Part shown: positions 1 to 20,309 of the stretch, piece after piece
Layout of the letters: each line of letters starts with the position of its first letter
Position numbering within the stretch: the first letter of the stretch is position 1
Assembly: GCA_018992685.1 (NCBI GenBank)
Contig: JACVGT010000038.1
Location: forward strand, 1-55,942
Length of the DNA stretch: 55,942 bases
Source: Theionarchaea archaeon
Lineage (GTDB): Archaea > Methanobacteriota_B > Thermococci > Methanofastidiosales > SZ-28-30
Reading direction: 5' to 3'
Notes under the pieces: model-generated
Database searches by the model: none
Told to the model about the DNA's origin: nothing
The model's input: the letters and a program-made list of their open reading frames with translations, nothing else
Made by a program: the position numbers and the translations under genes

Positions 1-1240
1 TACAACATACACGTACAATGAAATGAATGAGCTGCTCTCTCTTTCAGATCCCAGTGGGAATTCTACCTTCACTTATGATATTTACGGAAATTTGGCTACT
101 GAGGATGATGGTCAGAACCTATGGGAATACTCTTACGACTACGAAAACAGACTTGTATCAATTAAGGAAGATGGTCAGGTAATAGAAGAGTACTTCTATG
201 ATGGTGAGGGAAAGAGGATCAAGAAAACTGATGCTGACTCTGAAAGAGTCTATATATATGGCGGCTTAAACGTTCTCCATGAGGTGAACACAACGACTCA
301 AATGGAAGCTACCTACATCTATGGACCCACTGGACAGCTGGCCAAGAAAGTGAATGACATCACAGAATACTACCACACAGATCACCTGGGTTCTACCAGA
401 CTGGTGACATCAGAAAATGGTGTGACAACTGAGGAAATTAAGTACAGACCTTTTGGTGAACAGCTCAATGAAACAGAAGAAAGATATACGTATAATGGAA
501 AGGAATTAGATGAAACTGGTCTCTATTACTACGGTGCCCGCTACTATGATCCTGTTATTGGTCGTTTTATCACAAGAGATCCACTGACAGGAGAAAAGGA
601 ATCTCCTCAAACTCTCAATAGATATGTGTATTGCCTAAATAATCCTTTGAGATATATTGATCCAACAGGGGAAGGCATTCTTGATACAGTCAAGAATACT
701 TTCGGGCGACTTGAGAGTTTAGAGCCAGAAGATCTCGAGGAAGTTCAGGATCTCTTGGATGCTGGGAAGGAACTTGAAGCCCTAATGAAAATCTTTCTGT
801 TATTAGGATTTGACATCACAGATAATGGAAATGGAACTCTAAACCTCAACCTAGGTGAAGGTAAGCAATTCACCGTGAACATTGACAACAATCTAATAGA
901 TCCTGACAATGGTCAGCCTGCTTGGGGACTCACGGATAATGAGAATTTCACGATCTCAATCAACTTGTCTACTAAGAAAGCAGGAGATGCCACATTGACC
1001 GTACTCCATGAGGTTTGCCACGGCCTATTGGGTAACACACGTTCCGACATAATAAGAGTGGAACATGAATTTATATATCCTATGGAGCAAGCATTCATGA
1101 ATGCCATGATAAACTCTTCGAACATTGAATTCTCAAGGAAATTCCAGAATCATATCATTGGACAGACTGCAATCCAGAAGCGACACGTTCCAATCGTTGA
1201 TGTACTGAACCGATGGAAAAGGGGGTGGAGAATATTATGA
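1..1240 (+). CDS. Rhs/YD-repeat protein (5'-partial) with C-terminal HExxH metallopeptidase-like domain
   Basis: YD repeats and Rhs core (YYHTDHLGS, YYYGARYYDP, NPLRYIDPTG), followed by a distinct C-terminal domain containing HEVCH. The frame is open back to the window start. Confidence 0.9.
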   Translation, partial: TTYTYNEMNELLSLSDPSGNSTFTYDIYGNLATEDDGQNLWEYSYDYENRLVSIKEDGQVIEEYFYDGEGKRIKKTDADSERVYIYGGLNVLHEVNTTTQMEATYIYGPTGQLAKKVNDITEYYHTDHLGSTRLVTSENGVTTEEIKYRPFGEQLNETEERYTYNGKELDETGLYYYGARYYDPVIGRFITRDPLTGEKESPQTLNRYVYCLNNPLRYIDPTGEGILDTVKNTFGRLESLEPEDLEEVQDLLDAGKELEALMKIFLLLGFDITDNGNGTLNLNLGEGKQFTVNIDNNLIDPDNGQPAWGLTDNENFTISINLSTKKAGDATLTVLHEVCHGLLGNTRSDIIRVEHEFIYPMEQAFMNAMINSSNIEFSRKFQNHIIGQTAIQKRHVPIVDVLNRWKRGWRIL

Positions 1241-3397: not shown

Positions 3398-3586
3398 ATG
3401 TATATGTCAACAACTGTAGCAGTATCAAGAGAGACCAAGGAAATGCTCAGAAAGCTGGGCGAGAAAGGAGAGAGTTATGACTCTATCATACGTAAATTAG
3501 TCGAAAAGGCTTCCTGGAAGGAACTTGATGACCGTTGGAACAAAATACTTACAGAAGATGAGTTTATACCTCTCGATGAACTATGA
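3398..3586 (+). CDS. Putative antitoxin (RHH-like N-terminus, acidic C-terminus)
   Basis: STTVAVSRETKEMLRKLG..GESYDSIIRKL, ends EFIPLDEL, overlaps the toxin start (ATGA). Confidence 0.8.
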   Translation: MYMSTTVAVSRETKEMLRKLGEKGESYDSIIRKLVEKASWKELDDRWNKILTEDEFIPLDEL

Positions 3587-3855
3587 TGTACACGATCCTT
3601 GTTTCCAAAACATTTCTGAGGCAATTTACAAACCTAGAGAGTAGCATACGAGAAAAAATCAGATTAGCATTAAGAAATCTAGAAACAGACCCGTTCAAAT
3701 CTCGTTCTGGTACGGATATCAAAAGACTCTCCCATACTCGCCCTACAAAGTACAGATTGCGGGTAGGGACTTATAGAATCATCTATGTTGTGGAGAATAA
3801 GACAGTGAAAGTACTGGAAGTTTTCAAGAGAGGAAAAGAGTACAGGAATGTCTGA
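3583..3855 (+). CDS. relE: RelE/ParE-family toxin
   Basis: 90-aa basic protein with YRLRVGTYRIIY and a C-terminal F.R.K.Y. Confidence 0.85.
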   Translation: MMYTILVSKTFLRQFTNLESSIREKIRLALRNLETDPFKSRSGTDIKRLSHTRPTKYRLRVGTYRIIYVVENKTVKVLEVFKRGKEYRNV

Positions 3856-3863
3856 TTTCTCCT

Positions 3864-4223
3864 TTAGAGTGAGCACCAAACTGCCAAAACTAACACAATG
3901 AAGGGCACAAACAGCATTATGAACATGTCAAGGTAGAACTCTATGTGGAGGAAAGCGAATACCATGCGTCCTCTAGCATTGAACCAGATGATCTTCCCAA
4001 CATAATAAAGAGTTACAAATAGAGGAAGGATAGTATTCCTGCTTACCAGAGCACCCACGAAAGCTCTGTCTTTAACAGTGGTTTGATGATTGAGATAGGC
4101 AATCTCTGCAGGTCTCTGGCGTTCCTCAATGACTGGATAGTATCACAGAATATTAGCAGTTCCGAATGTAGAAGATTACTGCACACATCCTGTAATTCTT
4201 ACAACTTCAGATAAGATATGCAC
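3864..4223 (-). pseudogene. Possible degraded membrane-protein gene
   Basis: Hydrophobic 3' frame (3864-4058) extends upstream through in-frame TGA and TAA stops. Confidence 0.25.
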
Positions 4224-4303
4224 GTTTTAACTTCAAACTCTTATGCAATTATTACCCAAACGTTTTTAATCAGTTCTGCAAAATAAAAGAGAGGTGAAGA
4301 TGT

Positions 4304-4399
4304 ATGAACTTTCTGAAAGGTTGGCCTTTTGAACCATTGGATATGATTCAAGGCAATGTTACCACATCGGGAGAATCTGGTGGAGGAAGTCCAGGTTAG
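4304..4399 (+). CDS. 31-aa Gly/Ser-tailed peptide MNFLKGWPFEPLDMIQGNVTTSGESGGGSPG
   Basis: TATA-like TTTTTAAT at 4263-4270 and GAGGTGA RBS at 4291-4297. Its stop directly abuts the stop of the convergent regulator. Confidence 0.55.
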   Translation: MNFLKGWPFEPLDMIQGNVTTSGESGGGSPG

Positions 4400-5344
4400 C
4401 TATGGCAAATTAGGTTTCCAGTGATAGATTGGTCTAGCACTCCAAAAATGGTCAATCAATCCAAGGTCAATCATTTTCGAACAGTATTTGAAGAGCCTTT
4501 CTGTCATTTCCTCTCCCTTCTGAATGCTCAAATAGACAACTAATGCGCCATCCACCTTCGTTATTGATGTATGACACGGTAAGCATCCAAAAAACTTACA
4601 AAGGAAATCCTCATAATCTGACCAGAATACAAAGAAATATTGTGAATACAATCTGAATCCCAATGGATAGTAGGGTAGCAATACTGTAGATACATTCAAC
4701 AGATAATTAATTCCTTTGTAAAAGGATTCAAAAGATATGTGTAATTCTTTTAGAATAGGGGTAAATCCAGTCCTTAGATCGTATTTAATATATGGGAAAA
4801 TCATCAATCCGTAATGTGAACTCCCTTGTTCAGGAGGCTCCTTATGATATTCGACAGGTATTCTTGATGAAGAGTGTTCATTATCAAGCATAGCTTCCAT
4901 CTTATCTAGAGCATTTTCATATGTACAATCAGTCAAGTCAGGAAAGATATAGTCACTTCTAGAACCGCAAAGCAATGTCCTATCGGGGAGTACATCTAAT
5001 TCTTTACTTGTTTGGAGTAAAATGTCAAATTTTCCTGACGTATATGAGATATAGATTACATCATGATTTTTCTGAAAATGAGTGTACAATTTATGGGCGG
5101 AATCACTCTGTATCAGATAAATGTACTCCTTTCTTTTCTCGTACATATTAAGACGTATTTGAGGGGCGAAAAATACTTTTTTGTCTAATCCCTCTTTCCA
5201 GTATTTCGCTACAGTATTCCTAGAAGCATGACATTTTTTTGCTGCTTCATTAGTGAATAACCGAGGCTCTTTCAAGAATGTGCGATACATGCAATGGTTT
5301 AATCTCCTTAAGTCCTCTGGTGAATAAATGCACATGTCTTTCAC
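4400..5344 (-). CDS. Putative transcription regulator with tandem wHTH (Lrp/AsnC-like duplicated) architecture
   Basis: N-terminal HTH (EPRLFTNEAAKKCHASRNTVAKY) and a second HTH-like segment (YDLRTGFTPILKELHISFESFYK), each followed by a predicted alpha/beta domain. Confidence 0.65.
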   Translation of the reverse strand: MKDMCIYSPEDLRRLNHCMYRTFLKEPRLFTNEAAKKCHASRNTVAKYWKEGLDKKVFFAPQIRLNMYEKRKEYIYLIQSDSAHKLYTHFQKNHDVIYISYTSGKFDILLQTSKELDVLPDRTLLCGSRSDYIFPDLTDCTYENALDKMEAMLDNEHSSSRIPVEYHKEPPEQGSSHYGLMIFPYIKYDLRTGFTPILKELHISFESFYKGINYLLNVSTVLLPYYPLGFRLYSQYFFVFWSDYEDFLCKFFGCLPCHTSITKVDGALVVYLSIQKGEEMTERLFKYCSKMIDLGLIDHFWSARPIYHWKPNLP

Positions 5345-5443
5345 CGTTAATCTCTTATTCCAAAGTGACTATTTAAAGCTATCGTAGGGGTTCCAAAACA
5401 CTAACCTCTTCGAGAAACCGATACAAAAAAAGGAGGTAGAAAT

Positions 5444-5575
5444 ATGGGTGAATCAATCATTCCGAAAGGTTCGGAAAAGGAGAAAACCAGTGAAGGAGAG
5501 GATAACAACCCAGAAAAAGAAGAAAAGAAAAAGAAAGGAAGGACATATCCACGCATCGGAGAAATCCCTGGATAA
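5444..5575 (+). CDS. 43-aa charged peptide MGESIIPKGSEKEKTSEGEDNNPEKEEKKKKGRTYPRIGEIPG
   Basis: Strong AGGAGGT RBS at 5431-5437, divergent from the regulator, followed by a terminator-like element. Confidence 0.55.
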   Translation: MGESIIPKGSEKEKTSEGEDNNPEKEEKKKKGRTYPRIGEIPG

Positions 5576-5644
5576 TTACCTTCTCACACAGTACCGCAAG
5601 AATCGAATCGAACAGAGGCCGAAAGGACTTTTACCGAGTGGCAC

Positions 5645-5706
5645 AACAGAGAGCCTGTAAACACTTCTAGTCTTTCACCCCCCTCAGGCTCTCTGTTCTT
5701 TTTTTT
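5645..5706 (+). terminator. 13-bp inverted repeat followed by a T-tract
   Basis: AACAGAGAGCCTG (5645-5657) pairs with CAGGCTCTCTGTT (5685-5697), then a run of 8 T. Confidence 0.6.
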
Positions 5707-5726
5707 AGCTTAAATTACTAATGAAT

Positions 5727-6007
5727 TTAGAAATGTTGGTTCTTCTCTACAGGATATGTCAGTACACCTTCTACCTCATTCCCGTACCCCAACATGTACA
5801 GCCATAATTGAACGTGATGAAAGTTCTTCTCTTTCCCAGATTAAACTTCAATGATGGTCGGGACATCTTTCATCAATATAATGTCAATTTTCCCGACCAA
5901 TTTCATCAGTTCTAGGTCTAGACAATAACTTCACTCTTGCACTTATTCACAATCTGAGACACCAGATATTCATGTCTTATGCTGTACTCAATCAATTCCT
6001 TACTCAC
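5727..6007 (-). pseudogene. Cas4-like/RecB-type PD-(D/E)XK nuclease remnant
   Basis: Manual translation gives VSKELIEYSIRHE..KSEVIV, a frameshift, then LVGKIDIILMKDVPTIIEV*SGKEKNFHHVQLWLY. TAA at 5841-5843 replaces the catalytic Lys. Confidence 0.7.
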
Positions 6008-7096: not shown

Positions 7097-7326
7097 CCTC
7101 ATGCTCTTGATTAATTAAAAGTCTGCTGAATTATCCACCGTAAATCGAATGACACAGAATAGTTCCGAACTAATCATCTACCGAAGTTCGAATGGATTAA
7201 TTAAGAGAATGACTTGTTTACATATCATAACAGCACTATTGAAATTCCGTAGGTTCACAAGTCATACCCAGATATTCTGTATCATTCAATGGGTAACCTT
7301 TAATAAGAATGCACAATTGTCTCTAT

Positions 7327-7764
7327 ATGAAAGTGGATGTTGACTGCATCATGCGGAATGGTGAAGTAGAAATTGGCATCTCATTAGTAGAACGCATATC
7401 CCAGCAGGAATTCGAAGAATATGCAGACACCTTACGGAGAGAAGGATTCGAATACGATTCCTACAATCAAAGCAATTTCTTCACCACGAAAACTCCGAGA
7501 ATGCTTGCTGCAATGCTCAAATTTCTGGATAAAGAATATCAAGTTGAGGGAAAACTCAGAGGTAAGAAAGTATATTCTTGGGAAGAAAGAGACCAATTTG
7601 TGAAAGACTTCGAAGCATCACTTGTTCAACCAGGGCCTGAACCTGATGCAGAACCTTCTCATACCCATACTGAACCTTCTCATACCCATACTGAACCTTC
7701 TCATACCCATACTGAACCTTCTCATACCCATACTGAACCTTCTCATACCCATACTGAACCATAA
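7327..7764 (+). CDS. Hypothetical protein with (EPSHTHT)5 tail
   Basis: Globular-looking N-terminus of about 105 aa plus a repeat-encoded His-rich tail. Start is 7309 or 7327. Confidence 0.65.
   Translation: MKVDVDCIMRNGEVEIGISLVERISQQEFEEYADTLRREGFEYDSYNQSNFFTTKTPRMLAAMLKFLDKEYQVEGKLRGKKVYSWEERDQFVKDFEASLVQPGPEPDAEPSHTHTEPSHTHTEPSHTHTEPSHTHTEPSHTHTEP
7651..7760 (+). repeat. 21-bp perfect tandem repeat, 5 full copies plus a partial (VNTR)
   Basis: GAACCTTCTCATACCCATACT at 7651, 7672, 7693, 7714 and 7735. Confidence 0.95.
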
Positions 7765-19172: not shown

Positions 19173-20204
19173 TTACACAATGAGTCTTCTTTTAAATCCA
19201 ATGAGAATACCCCCTGCTGCCAATGCTAAGAACACTGTGGCAAATGCCACCACAATGTCAAGAGATTCGACAATCTCCCAGAATAGGAGCACGGAAGCAC
19301 TCATTACCCCAATTCCTGCACCAGCAAAGTACAACTGGCTCAAAGGCTGGCCATTCAAGAATCTGAACAGATTGATCTGAGCCATGGCCAGAAGGAGTAT
19401 GACAATGTACGATATGGTGATTCCTGACAAGAATAATATGAACAGTGCAGTGTCATAGACGAACCTCCCCTTTAGAGCTGTCAAATAGATAATACCCATA
19501 AAGAGAGGAGCAGAATCCGGAAATTTGGCAAATCCATGGATAAATCCGAGTTTCAATGTGGAAAGAGAATTGAAACTGATAAAATGCGTCCTGGTGTACA
19601 GGTCGATCTTGGTGTAAGAATTGAAGGTGTGCAGTCCTGAATTCAGCAAGTTTATGGCACTGGCAAATCCTAGAAGCGCGGCAGCCAGCCGCAAGTAGGG
19701 CCCGCTATCCAGAATCAGAAAGAGCGGGGTAATTACGGCGAAGATCCCTGCGTAGAACACCAGTGAGCGCAGCATGACATCCAGCTCGTCTCGCGTTGTC
19801 CGGGCTACCTCGCTGATAACGTCAGAGTGCAGGCCCATTAGTGTGGGAGATAGCCCCGATACCATCCCCAGCACGACTGCAAGAACCCAGTAGAACCAGG
19901 GAACACTCCCGTGAAGGGCTTCCATGATATCTGAAAGTTCAATTTCACCTGTCAGTTTCTGTCCTCCTATAACAAGGGCTGGAGTGTAGGTAAATCCATA
20001 CTCTTTGAACTTCTCAAATCCTTCCACTGTTGCTACACTGTACCTAGTGACACGGATAGTTCCTTCATCAGAAAGATGGTCAAGGATGAGAGAAACCTTT
20101 GCACATTGAGGACACCCTTCCTCGTAGAAATAGATAACCTCAGGTTGAGCAGATGCCAGCGGTACAAGGCTTAGAATGATGAATAGCAGGAGCAGTTTCT
20201 TCAT
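19173..20204 (-). CDS. Thioredoxin-fold plus degenerate CcdA-like membrane protein
   Basis: Signal peptide and CPQC motif. The TM domain is paralogous to the neighbour but has no Cys. Confidence 0.75.
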   Translation of the reverse strand: MKKLLLLFIILSLVPLASAQPEVIYFYEEGCPQCAKVSLILDHLSDEGTIRVTRYSVATVEGFEKFKEYGFTYTPALVIGGQKLTGEIELSDIMEALHGSVPWFYWVLAVVLGMVSGLSPTLMGLHSDVISEVARTTRDELDVMLRSLVFYAGIFAVITPLFLILDSGPYLRLAAALLGFASAINLLNSGLHTFNSYTKIDLYTRTHFISFNSLSTLKLGFIHGFAKFPDSAPLFMGIIYLTALKGRFVYDTALFILFLSGITISYIVILLLAMAQINLFRFLNGQPLSQLYFAGAGIGVMSASVLLFWEIVESLDIVVAFATVFLALAAGGILIGFKRRLIV

Positions 20205-20309
20205 ATCACCGGATACTTGAGTTGGCATATAAAAGTTGTCATTGTTCCCTACAGTCTTCACGTGTGCGAGACCCGGGACTATACCGTGTCGAACTCGCGT
20301 TGAATACAG

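Follow-up and report, generated by a model that had tools for sequence, protein, structure and literature searches.

The question raised by this locus is whether a protein built like a doubled archaeal transcription regulator could read the ends of small peptides that are encoded on either side of its own gene. The window, i.e. the whole stretch of DNA analysed, is a 55,942-nucleotide (nt) contig of a Theionarchaea archaeon (JACVGT010000038.1, assembly GCA_018992685.1), and the module in question comprises a large minus-strand gene and two plus-strand small open reading frames (sORFs), of which sORF1 is convergent with the large gene and sORF2 divergent from it. An earlier note on this DNA had described this three-ORF arrangement, including a TATA-like box and a GAGGTGA ribosome-binding site (RBS) of its own for sORF1 and, for the divergent sORF2, an AGGAGGT RBS and a terminator, and all of these elements were located again (Table 1), the last as a hairpin with a T-run. 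The stop codon of sORF1 (TAG, 4397–4399) touches that of the minus-strand gene (CTA, 4400–4402) with zero gap. In our judgement the module has about an even chance of being a peptide-responsive regulator of the Lrp/AsnC fold with two cognate peptides that end in Pro-Gly (PG), probably feeding back on the sORF1 promoter.

The evidence begins with the conservation of sORF1. Orthologues of the large protein are encoded at 40 metagenome loci, at 50–74% identity over the best matched segment, and a convergent sORF1 of 29–32 amino acids (aa) was detected at 36 of them and by pattern search at a 37th (L063); at the remaining three the contig stops at or before the large-gene stop, so the sORF1 DNA is missing. 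In most loci the sORF1 stop lies within 4 nt of that of the gene, and otherwise the two overlap by 24–121 nt. Across loci the peptide has the form M-N-x-L-K-G-W-P-F-E-P ... C-G-x-G-x-S-G-G-G-S-P-G. The N-terminus had been called leader-like in the earlier note, which holds insofar as the motif LKGWPFEP is conserved, but it is not a Sec signal peptide, and a hydrophobic N-terminus was seen in none of the 23 aligned members of the sORF1 subfamily.

The variation among 28 unique nucleotide versions of sORF1 is concentrated at third codon positions, the N-terminal block having minor-allele fractions at positions 1/2/3 of 0.11/0.05/0.30 and the final eight codons 0.12/0.13/0.45, i.e. third positions vary 3–6 times as much as positions 1 and 2, and the invariant L, P, F, P and G are each spelled by 2–4 synonymous codons. 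Both features point to coding-type selection, and this codon pattern argues for selection acting on the peptide. The reading frame is intact across orthologues at 48–87% protein identity, and the indels in the module, of 27 nt and 3 nt, are in frame. In the closest paralogue (78% protein identity) DNA similarity spans 4208–5704, i.e. the whole unit with both sORFs; there the tail of sORF1 is GDSSGGSPG, five of the changes are synonymous and an insertion of 27 nt stays in frame. As a side observation, a C-terminal extension of 9–10 residues (...STGASPA-like) at P0007, P0025, P0033, P0036 and P0046 and at L052, L056, L059, L066 and L067 corresponds to the Gly-rich tail of sORF1 read in antisense, the genes overlapping by 24 nt at those loci.

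Peptides of this kind also accompany distant paralogues. Among 35 paralogues from five genomes, at 20–30% identity, 15 are accompanied by a small convergent ORF with many Gly towards its C-terminus and a stop between 2 nt beyond and 44 nt inside that of the gene, and 12 of these 15 peptides end in Pro-Gly. The scan of homologue flanks for adjacent small ORFs, as proposed in the earlier note, returned sORF1 in 37/40 loci, sORF2 in 25/35 and paralogue peptides in 15/35. Ten of the 15 paralogue peptides start like Sec signals as judged by eye (1–2 basic residues, 12–17 hydrophobic residues, then a small-x-small site; e.g. MNKILVFLLIAGLVLAGTVSA... to ...GGGGSGSAPIPG), and the other five start like the window's peptide. 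The genome of the window contains 41,088 small ORFs of 20–90 aa, of which 228 (0.55%) have a Pro-Gly end; in only eight is this end preceded by a tail with 5 or more Gly among its final 14 residues, and seven of these lie beside a paralogue. Within 450 nt of 20 family loci 10 distinct PG-ending small ORFs were counted versus 1.5 expected from the genome density, with the paralogues behind this comparison not independent of each other. PG-ended small ORFs thus occur beside family loci more often than by chance. The eighth of the Gly-rich, PG-ended ORFs is an orphan, a 63-aa ORF at C3:170671-170862 (-) with a signal-peptide-like start and a ...GGPGGGAGPIPG end, which has no family member adjacent and sits between cation-efflux-like and thioredoxin-reductase-like ORFs (names read from the translations).

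For the large protein and both sORF peptides, searches of Pfam, NCBIfam, PADLOC, PHROGs and a PDB sequence profile gave no usable match. An AlphaFold2 model of the large protein built on a 38-homologue alignment (predicted local distance difference test, pLDDT, 93.1; predicted template modelling score, pTM, 0.89) consists of two tandem units, each a three-helix helix-turn-helix (HTH) followed by an alpha/beta domain. The top Foldseek match was the fused sirohaem decarboxylase NirDL (4ch7, E 5e-7), below which many Lrp/AsnC regulators are listed, each spanning one half of the protein. VIA-align gave Z 11.9 to 4ch7 with 250 residues aligned (root-mean-square deviation 4.9) and Z 6.4–8.2 to Lrp/AsnC chains, with a shared beta-alpha-beta-beta-alpha-beta fold. 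The duplicated Lrp/AsnC unit that the earlier note had seen is thus right at the level of fold, and the predicted structure confirms a tandem Lrp/AsnC architecture.

Sequence comparison weakly indicates the same kinship. Among 32 diverse family members Pfam found HTH_24 in 21 and an HTH_AsnC-type domain in four, and PF01037 (RAM / AsnC_trans_reg) in none; the family profile reaches 156-aa Thermococcales proteins at E ~1e-6, and the three of these that were scanned with Pfam are canonical Lrp/AsnC. ESM Atlas neighbours are archaeal proteins of ~320–415 aa with the same HTH families, and the isoelectric point of the first HTH is 9.8. At best, the large protein would be a very divergent, fused Lrp/AsnC branch. 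As to its start, an ATG at 5335 would give 311 aa, and since most homologues begin MCIY/MSIY there and the RBS GGTGAAAG lies just upstream, this ATG is probably the true start rather than the GTG. The majority of the 17 listed intergenic regions of orthologues keep CTTTCACC and after it ATG-TGC-AT in reverse complement; in six of the 17 the ATG-TGC part is TGCTCAT, and in one it is absent.

Named homologues are 'hypothetical protein' entries from metagenome-assembled genomes of Candidatus Methanofastidiosia and Theionarchaea. A search of 1.84 billion representative proteins yielded 817 matches at E<=1e-3 and 125 at E<=1e-30, and a genome-contig scan with the 38-homologue alignment found no relative. 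The family was present in 5 of 61 sampled genomes of the class, namely three of the window's genus with 19–24 matches each (22 in the window's own genome), and a sister genus and one genome of another family with one match each; the 30 genomes of the Thermococcales-like family all lacked it, and a search over all 133 genomes of the phylum agrees with this distribution. Together these searches confine it to a Theionarchaea/Methanofastidiosia-like lineage, with 17–24 matches per genome in one genus. Family genes also stand in tandem pairs, at C17:62179-64490 and C7:127153-128971 of the same genome, at C55:10342-12118 of G046 and at L073 and L079, and decayed copies were met in the window's genome, i.e. 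an intact sORF1 (C5:40241-40336) beside a 22-aa regulator remnant (C5:40342-40407), a half-length copy (C5:179440-179904) and one with an in-frame TAG (in C19:6572-7516).

A predicted tie between the peptide and the protein comes from co-folding. The AlphaFold check suggested in the earlier note was run for sORF1 and placed its tail in the cleft between the two alpha/beta domains, with an interface score (ipSAE) of 0.75 (runs 0.75, 0.72 and 0.78), where the highest-scoring of three controls had 0.03; when the tool was calibrated, 116 of 157 solved complexes and 2 of 215 mismatched pairs attained such a score, counts that apply only roughly here, since custom alignments were used. The runs have at least 49% of their contacts in common. 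In the predicted interface sORF1 residues 25–31 meet protein residues 56–134 and 188–310, the modelled terminal Pro-Gly rests against Arg64, Tyr98 and Gln111, and position -3 faces residues 59, 62, 222, 224, 258, 260 and 271. Of 34 aligned paralogues, 31 keep Arg64 and 27 keep Tyr98. According to PMC4145669, the substrate of AhbA/B occupies an equivalent cavity between the C-terminal domains. Taken as predictions, the models support binding of the sORF1 tail in the inter-domain cleft. Conservation of the contact residues did not differ between paralogue groups with and without a peptide (0.45 versus 0.42), and a single suggestive pairing was noted, that of a peptide ending ...GRPG with an Asp at aligned position 224 (G030, n = 1).

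The second peptide, sORF2, was found divergent from the gene in 25 of 35 loci, starting 79–113 nt upstream of it. It begins MGEDI or similar, is Glu/Lys-rich and, in the alignment, highly charged and without an export signal, and it follows an RBS GGAGGT or GGA(A/T)GTGA; the orthologues share the leader GAGAAACC(A/G)CTACAA and GGAGGT/GGAAGTGA. Its endings are of the form Gly-[A/I/T/V]-Pro-Gly, PG closing 24 of the 25 peptides and LG one, and the final Pro is written with three codons and the final Gly with four, in a set that was chosen by a regular expression requiring [PL]G, a bias from which the count of endings over the 25 loci is free. Downstream, a 13-bp hairpin (5645–5657 / 5685–5697) precedes a T-run, the fold of the whole stretch having a z of -1.8; a generic terminator scan of 4100–5900 flagged none, because the loop of this hairpin is 27 nt. 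The sORF2 module and its 3′ untranslated region (UTR) are 88–94% identical DNA in three copies within the window's genome and in the sister genome G046, and in the DNA of the closest paralogue the 3′ region is conserved at least as strongly as the coding part of sORF2. The copy on contig C6 is 94% identical in sORF2 DNA from 5412 on and stands beside a paralogue that is 25% identical in protein, which looks like a recent exchange or gene conversion of the sORF2 module alone. A TTCACC[CT]CC-like motif (5676–5687 in the window) also recurs 3′ of sORF2 in orthologues, usually near or inside long hairpins; given its resemblance to the 3′ terminus of 16S rRNA, it may be an anti-Shine-Dalgarno-like element. 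An antisense sORF behind this motif, which reads GG(G/A)GGTGAA-like on the opposite strand, was considered and rejected, no consistent ORF being found across loci.

The DNA upstream of sORF1 offers a place where such a regulator could act. In orthologues the order is a dyad TGCA(C/T)-N-(A/G)TGCA, then ACCCAAAC-x-TTTTTAA, GAGGTGAA and the ATG, and ACCCAAAC(C/G)TTTTTAA is near-invariant across orthologous loci at 50–87% protein identity. The pattern TGCA-N16-24-TGCA at -87 to -56 from the sORF1 ATG was found in 12 of 26 unique promoters, that of the window included, versus a mean of 0.06 and a maximum of 2/26 in 1000 shuffles, the promoters being homologous and hence not independent. In some loci the half-sites change together (TGCAT/ATGCA; GAATGTGA/TCACATTC). 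A generic inverted-repeat test on these promoters was uninformative (18/26, where shuffles gave 12.6 on average and 19 at most). Archaeal Lrp-family activators act directly upstream of the B recognition element (BRE) and TATA box. In the divergent intergenic region TTATAAA/TTTAAAG followed by (C)TATCGTA is conserved across orthologues at a TATA-like box, which may serve sORF2 and/or the large gene, in a direction that we infer.

A mechanism may be sketched from these parts. The 311/314-aa chain would be a fused pseudo-dimer of two HTH and alpha/beta units, whose inter-domain cleft would bind the free C-terminal ...Gly-x-Pro-Gly tails of small peptides, with the family-wide Arg64 and Tyr98 holding the terminal Pro-Gly and more variable residues facing the x position. 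sORF1 and sORF2, each apparently with a promoter and an RBS of its own, would be ligands of one pocket, e.g. agonist and competitor, which would explain why both peptides, and those of the paralogues, share the Pro-Gly end. The protein may bind the dyad upstream of the sORF1 BRE/TATA, of which the conservation of the dyad and the basic first HTH are indirect signs, and peptide occupancy would then feed back on peptide production.

Several observations weigh against this regulator reading. In the window's own protein Pfam finds nothing at E<=1 besides noise and no HTH, and the only full-length structural match, NirDL, is an enzyme. The peptide has a pLDDT of 40–42 in the three co-folding runs (the tool states >=39), and only its residues 25–31 (SGGGSPG) are placed, leaving the conserved LKGWPFEP motif and the conserved Cys outside the modelled interface and unexplained by it; most sORF1 orthologues have this Cys before the Gly run, where the window's peptide has Ser. 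Arg64 and Tyr98 do not track the presence of a peptide, because they are equally conserved in 20 paralogues without a detectable one. The exact dyad is missing or degenerate in 14 of the 26 promoters, some of which have another palindrome at about the same place or a near-miss dyad, and its half-sites are 23 bp apart centre to centre, which is far for the two HTHs of one chain. With 94% identical sORF2 DNA beside a paralogue only 25% identical, sORF2 is not tied to one partner, which argues against its being specific to its neighbour. The window's sORF1 has no signal peptide, and none of the 22 runs listed for the stretch is an RNA run.

How a peptide would reach the pocket is the next point. 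In distant paralogues the ligand would probably be secreted, trimmed and re-imported as in bacterial RRNPP systems, this being the simplest way to return the tail to a cytoplasmic pocket; the window's sORF1 would be exported by another route or act inside the cell. Six SBP_bac_5 (OppA-type) genes in the genome supply the precondition of an import route, but are not specific, and export of the window's own peptides is not indicated by their sequences. The regulator/cognate-peptide module that the earlier note had likened to Rgg/SHP or Rap/Phr pairs accordingly holds for the conserved adjacency, the fold and the modelled binding of the tail, whereas Rgg/SHP-like secretion would concern the distant paralogues only. 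The boldest version, that this is the first archaeal case of cell-to-cell signalling by peptides, in which fused Lrp/AsnC pseudo-dimers, a receptor class not known to be linked to peptides, read the free Gly-x-Pro-Gly ends of peptides that are secreted, processed and re-imported, with ~8–10 receptor-peptide pairs per genome in one Theionarchaea genus and the second PG-ended peptide as a built-in competitor, we regard as tentative and on balance doubtful.

The same peptides could instead not be signals at all but act within the cell on the tandem Lrp-like factor, as its co-repressors, anti-activators or stabilisers, the signal-like N-termini of the paralogue peptides then being membrane anchors or reflecting diverged function. 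The 0/23 hydrophobic N-termini in the sORF1 alignment, the high charge of sORF2 with its lack of an export signal, and the lack of any conserved exporter, protease or transporter gene in the flanks all agree with this; the Sec-signal-like starts that were judged by eye in 10/15 paralogue peptides do not, since a Sec signal would put the tail outside the cell, away from its cytoplasmic partner, unless it were re-imported. We consider a purely intracellular role unlikely.

The structural match raises another possibility, namely that the large protein is an enzyme, or a recognition or chaperone protein, that acts on PG-ended peptides in a maturation like that of RiPPs (ribosomally synthesized and post-translationally modified peptides), using its cavity as AhbA/B and NirDL do. 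No structure other than NirDL matched over the full length, and NirDL was also the best match (Z 11.9, 250 residues). In the co-folding model the peptide tail occupies the place equivalent to the sirohaem cavity, conserved Arg, Tyr, His and Ser run along the cleft, and sORF1 joins a leader-like conserved N-terminus to a Cys before the Gly run in most orthologues. The HXYXR motif (pattern H.Y.R), which according to PMC4145669 is conserved and cavity-facing in AhbA/B, was however found in 0/38 and 0/32 sequences of two family alignments, and neither the window's protein nor any of the 32 members matches Pfam NirdL-like_HTH or AsnC_trans_reg2, whereas 21 of the 32 match HTH_24. When the flanks of the 40 loci were clustered, the groups to emerge were the family, an antisense ORF within its gene and a small winged-helix protein, and no others; no radical-SAM, YcaO, protease, transporter or exporter gene is conserved there, and a convergent and divergent layout with separate promoters would be unusual for an operon of precursor and maturase. 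The alternative of RiPP-like precursors, raised in the earlier note, is weakened in that no known maturase family occurs in these flanks or among the window's three ORFs, and we hold an enzymatic role to be quite improbable. The winged-helix protein itself (83–130 aa, HTH_45 / HxlR-like) is encoded after sORF2, and on its strand, at 13 of the 40 loci, e.g. L073:1822-2124(-) and L078:1893-2177(-); it is missing from the window, and the sole homologue in the same genome (C15:125246-125512) lies on another contig.

In a selfish or addiction cassette present in many copies, the peptides would be toxins, those of the paralogues being membrane peptides of a type I-like kind, and either the large protein or the overlap between the convergent transcripts would serve as antidote. 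This would fit the 22 matches in one genome, the decayed copies, the convergent genes with abutting or overlapping 3′ ends, the position in a variable region, the low G+C of 37.6% over 4001–6000 versus 42–50% in the remaining window, and the DUF7557/ParE pair at 3398–3855. Yet a PADLOC scan of the large protein and both peptides returned no family and PHROGs one match at E 0.06, i.e. noise; the window's peptides have no membrane segment, the feature conserved is a Gly-rich PG tail and not a hydrophobic helix, the paralogues are old (20–30% identity) and not recent copies of a mobile element, and neither terminal repeats nor an integrase were seen in the 1.5-kb repeated unit, all of which makes such a cassette very unlikely. 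That the small ORFs are unexpressed and owe their conservation to promoter, terminator or RNA elements of the large gene would agree with the absence of both window sORFs from a collection of 15 billion proteins and with the 3′ region of sORF2 being conserved at least like its coding part, but is scarcely credible given the codon-position pattern and synonymous codon use, the in-frame indels, the suitably spaced and conserved RBS of all copies, a frame kept across orthologues at 48–87% protein identity, the functionally similar peptides of other sequence beside distant paralogues, and the calling of some sORF1 orthologues as genes ('hypothetical protein') by JGI pipelines.

If the module is the peptide-responsive regulator that we favour, it is of a known kind, a regulator with a neighbouring cognate peptide, and new in its receptor fold, domain of life and recognition rule. 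The closest parallels are the RRNPP pairs of Bacillota (Rgg/SHP, PlcR/PapR, Rap/Phr, PrgX with cCF10/iCF10, and Alo of Paenibacillus). Among them, shp and rgg are in some cases convergent, and PrgX has two rival peptide ligands, one of which is encoded next to prgX. The module shares with these systems a small peptide gene adjacent to the receptor gene (at 37/40 loci for sORF1 and beside 15/35 paralogues) with its own promoter, a predicted bound part that is the C-terminal end of the precursor, and many paralogous pairs per genome. It differs in having an Lrp/AsnC fold without a tetratricopeptide repeat (TPR) or helical repeat domain, in its archaeal host, in a near-identical Gly-x-Pro-Gly tail in all pairs in place of a distinct hydrophobic peptide for each, in window peptides without export signals, in two flanking peptides that share one end, and in being known from sequence and models. 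Side-by-side peptide-receptor pairs are, to our knowledge, known only from bacteria, with TPR receptors. For the Paenibacillus Alo systems more than 25 pairs are given in PMC7425212.

Classical Lrp/AsnC members bind a free amino acid between dimers. The large protein resembles these regulators in the HTH and the beta-alpha-beta-beta-alpha-beta domain of each half, in its weak profile match to the 156-aa Thermococcales members and in the HTH_24 of 21/32 members, unlike them in that two units are fused in one chain, that the window's member falls below all Pfam thresholds and that the proposed ligand is a peptide C-terminus in the cleft within the pair. With AhbA/B and NirDL it shares two Lrp-like units side by side and a cavity between the C-terminal domains, but not HXYXR or a sequence-family match, and it has small peptide genes beside it; among the 34 window ORFs scanned none is a gene of haem or d1 biosynthesis, and no such cluster was found in the flanks of related loci. 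The module is therefore neither an RRNPP system, the fold being another, nor a sirohaem decarboxylase, the motif being absent. A full-text literature search gave no account of the family, of the peptides or of an archaeal peptide-receptor pair, subscription-only papers and closed supplements lying outside that search. Should the module work as proposed, the regulator fold most widespread in archaea would gain small peptides among its ligands, under a short recognition rule in which a free ...Gly-x-Pro-Gly end is held by Arg64 and Tyr98, and an uncultured sediment lineage would provide a concrete, testable candidate for peptide signalling. Gene callers have missed two conserved genes per locus.

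Table 1. Coordinates and basis of the features of the module; protein features are numbered in residues
Feature	Position	Strand	Remarks
sORF1	4304–4399	+	31 aa, MNFLKGWPFEPLDMIQGNVTTSGESGGGSPG
Large ORF	4400–5344	-	314 aa from GTG
sORF2	5444–5575	+	43 aa, end GEIPG
Dyad TGCAC-N20-TGCA	4219–4247	.	candidate operator or upstream activating site, 5′ of the sORF1 promoter
BRE/TATA-like promoter of sORF1, CCCAAAC + TTTTTAAT (4263–4270)	4255–4270	+	conservation; putative function
Shine-Dalgarno GAGGTGA of sORF1	4291–4297	+	GAGGTGAA 5–8 nt before ATG in 26/26 promoters
RBS of large gene, GGTGAAAG	5338–5345	-	conserved in orthologous intergenic regions
TATA-like box TATTTAAAG in 99-nt divergent intergenic region	5370–5378	.	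conservation
5′ leader of sORF2 (GAGAAACC..ACAA), RBS AGGAGGT 5431–5437	5412–5443	+	conserved in orthologues
sORF2 3′ UTR, motif CTTTCACCCCCC in hairpin loop	5576–5706	+	88–94% identical copies
sORF2 module copies	window 5412–5704; C6:24958-25249; C14:65816-66170; L026		DNA identity
Tandem units of large protein	HTH 9–54 + alpha/beta 62–129; HTH 176–217 + alpha/beta 219–309	-	AlphaFold2 prediction

The module is flanked by the ParE-type toxin-antitoxin pair and by a HEAT-repeat gene, and ordinary chromosomal genes fill the window from ~7.8 kb on. The pair consists of two overlapping plus-strand ORFs directly upstream of the module, is type II toxin-antitoxin-like, and has one product of 62 aa that matches a DUF7557 / VapB-like antitoxin and one of 90 aa that matches a ParE toxin. 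An Rfam scan of 4100–5900 at E<=10 gave sub-threshold chance matches only. A weak tblastn match to the N-terminal motif of sORF1 (NWLKGWPFKNLNRL, E 0.14) at 19333–19374 (+) runs antisense inside a thioredoxin-domain ORF (19173–20261) and is probably due to chance. Farther upstream, 1213–2808 encodes a 531-aa PD40 beta-propeller protein with a signal-like N-terminus and a 43-residue segment that is repeated exactly, and on the other side a 151-aa ORF without a Pfam match (7309–7764) carries at least 5 tandem copies of EPSHTHT at its end. Between 2914 and 3480 short ORFs reuse peptide segments in differing frames and positions (KGHTQKTRIES / KGHTQKMRIES; VSKVILRKRGLKV), which suggests a degenerate DNA repeat.

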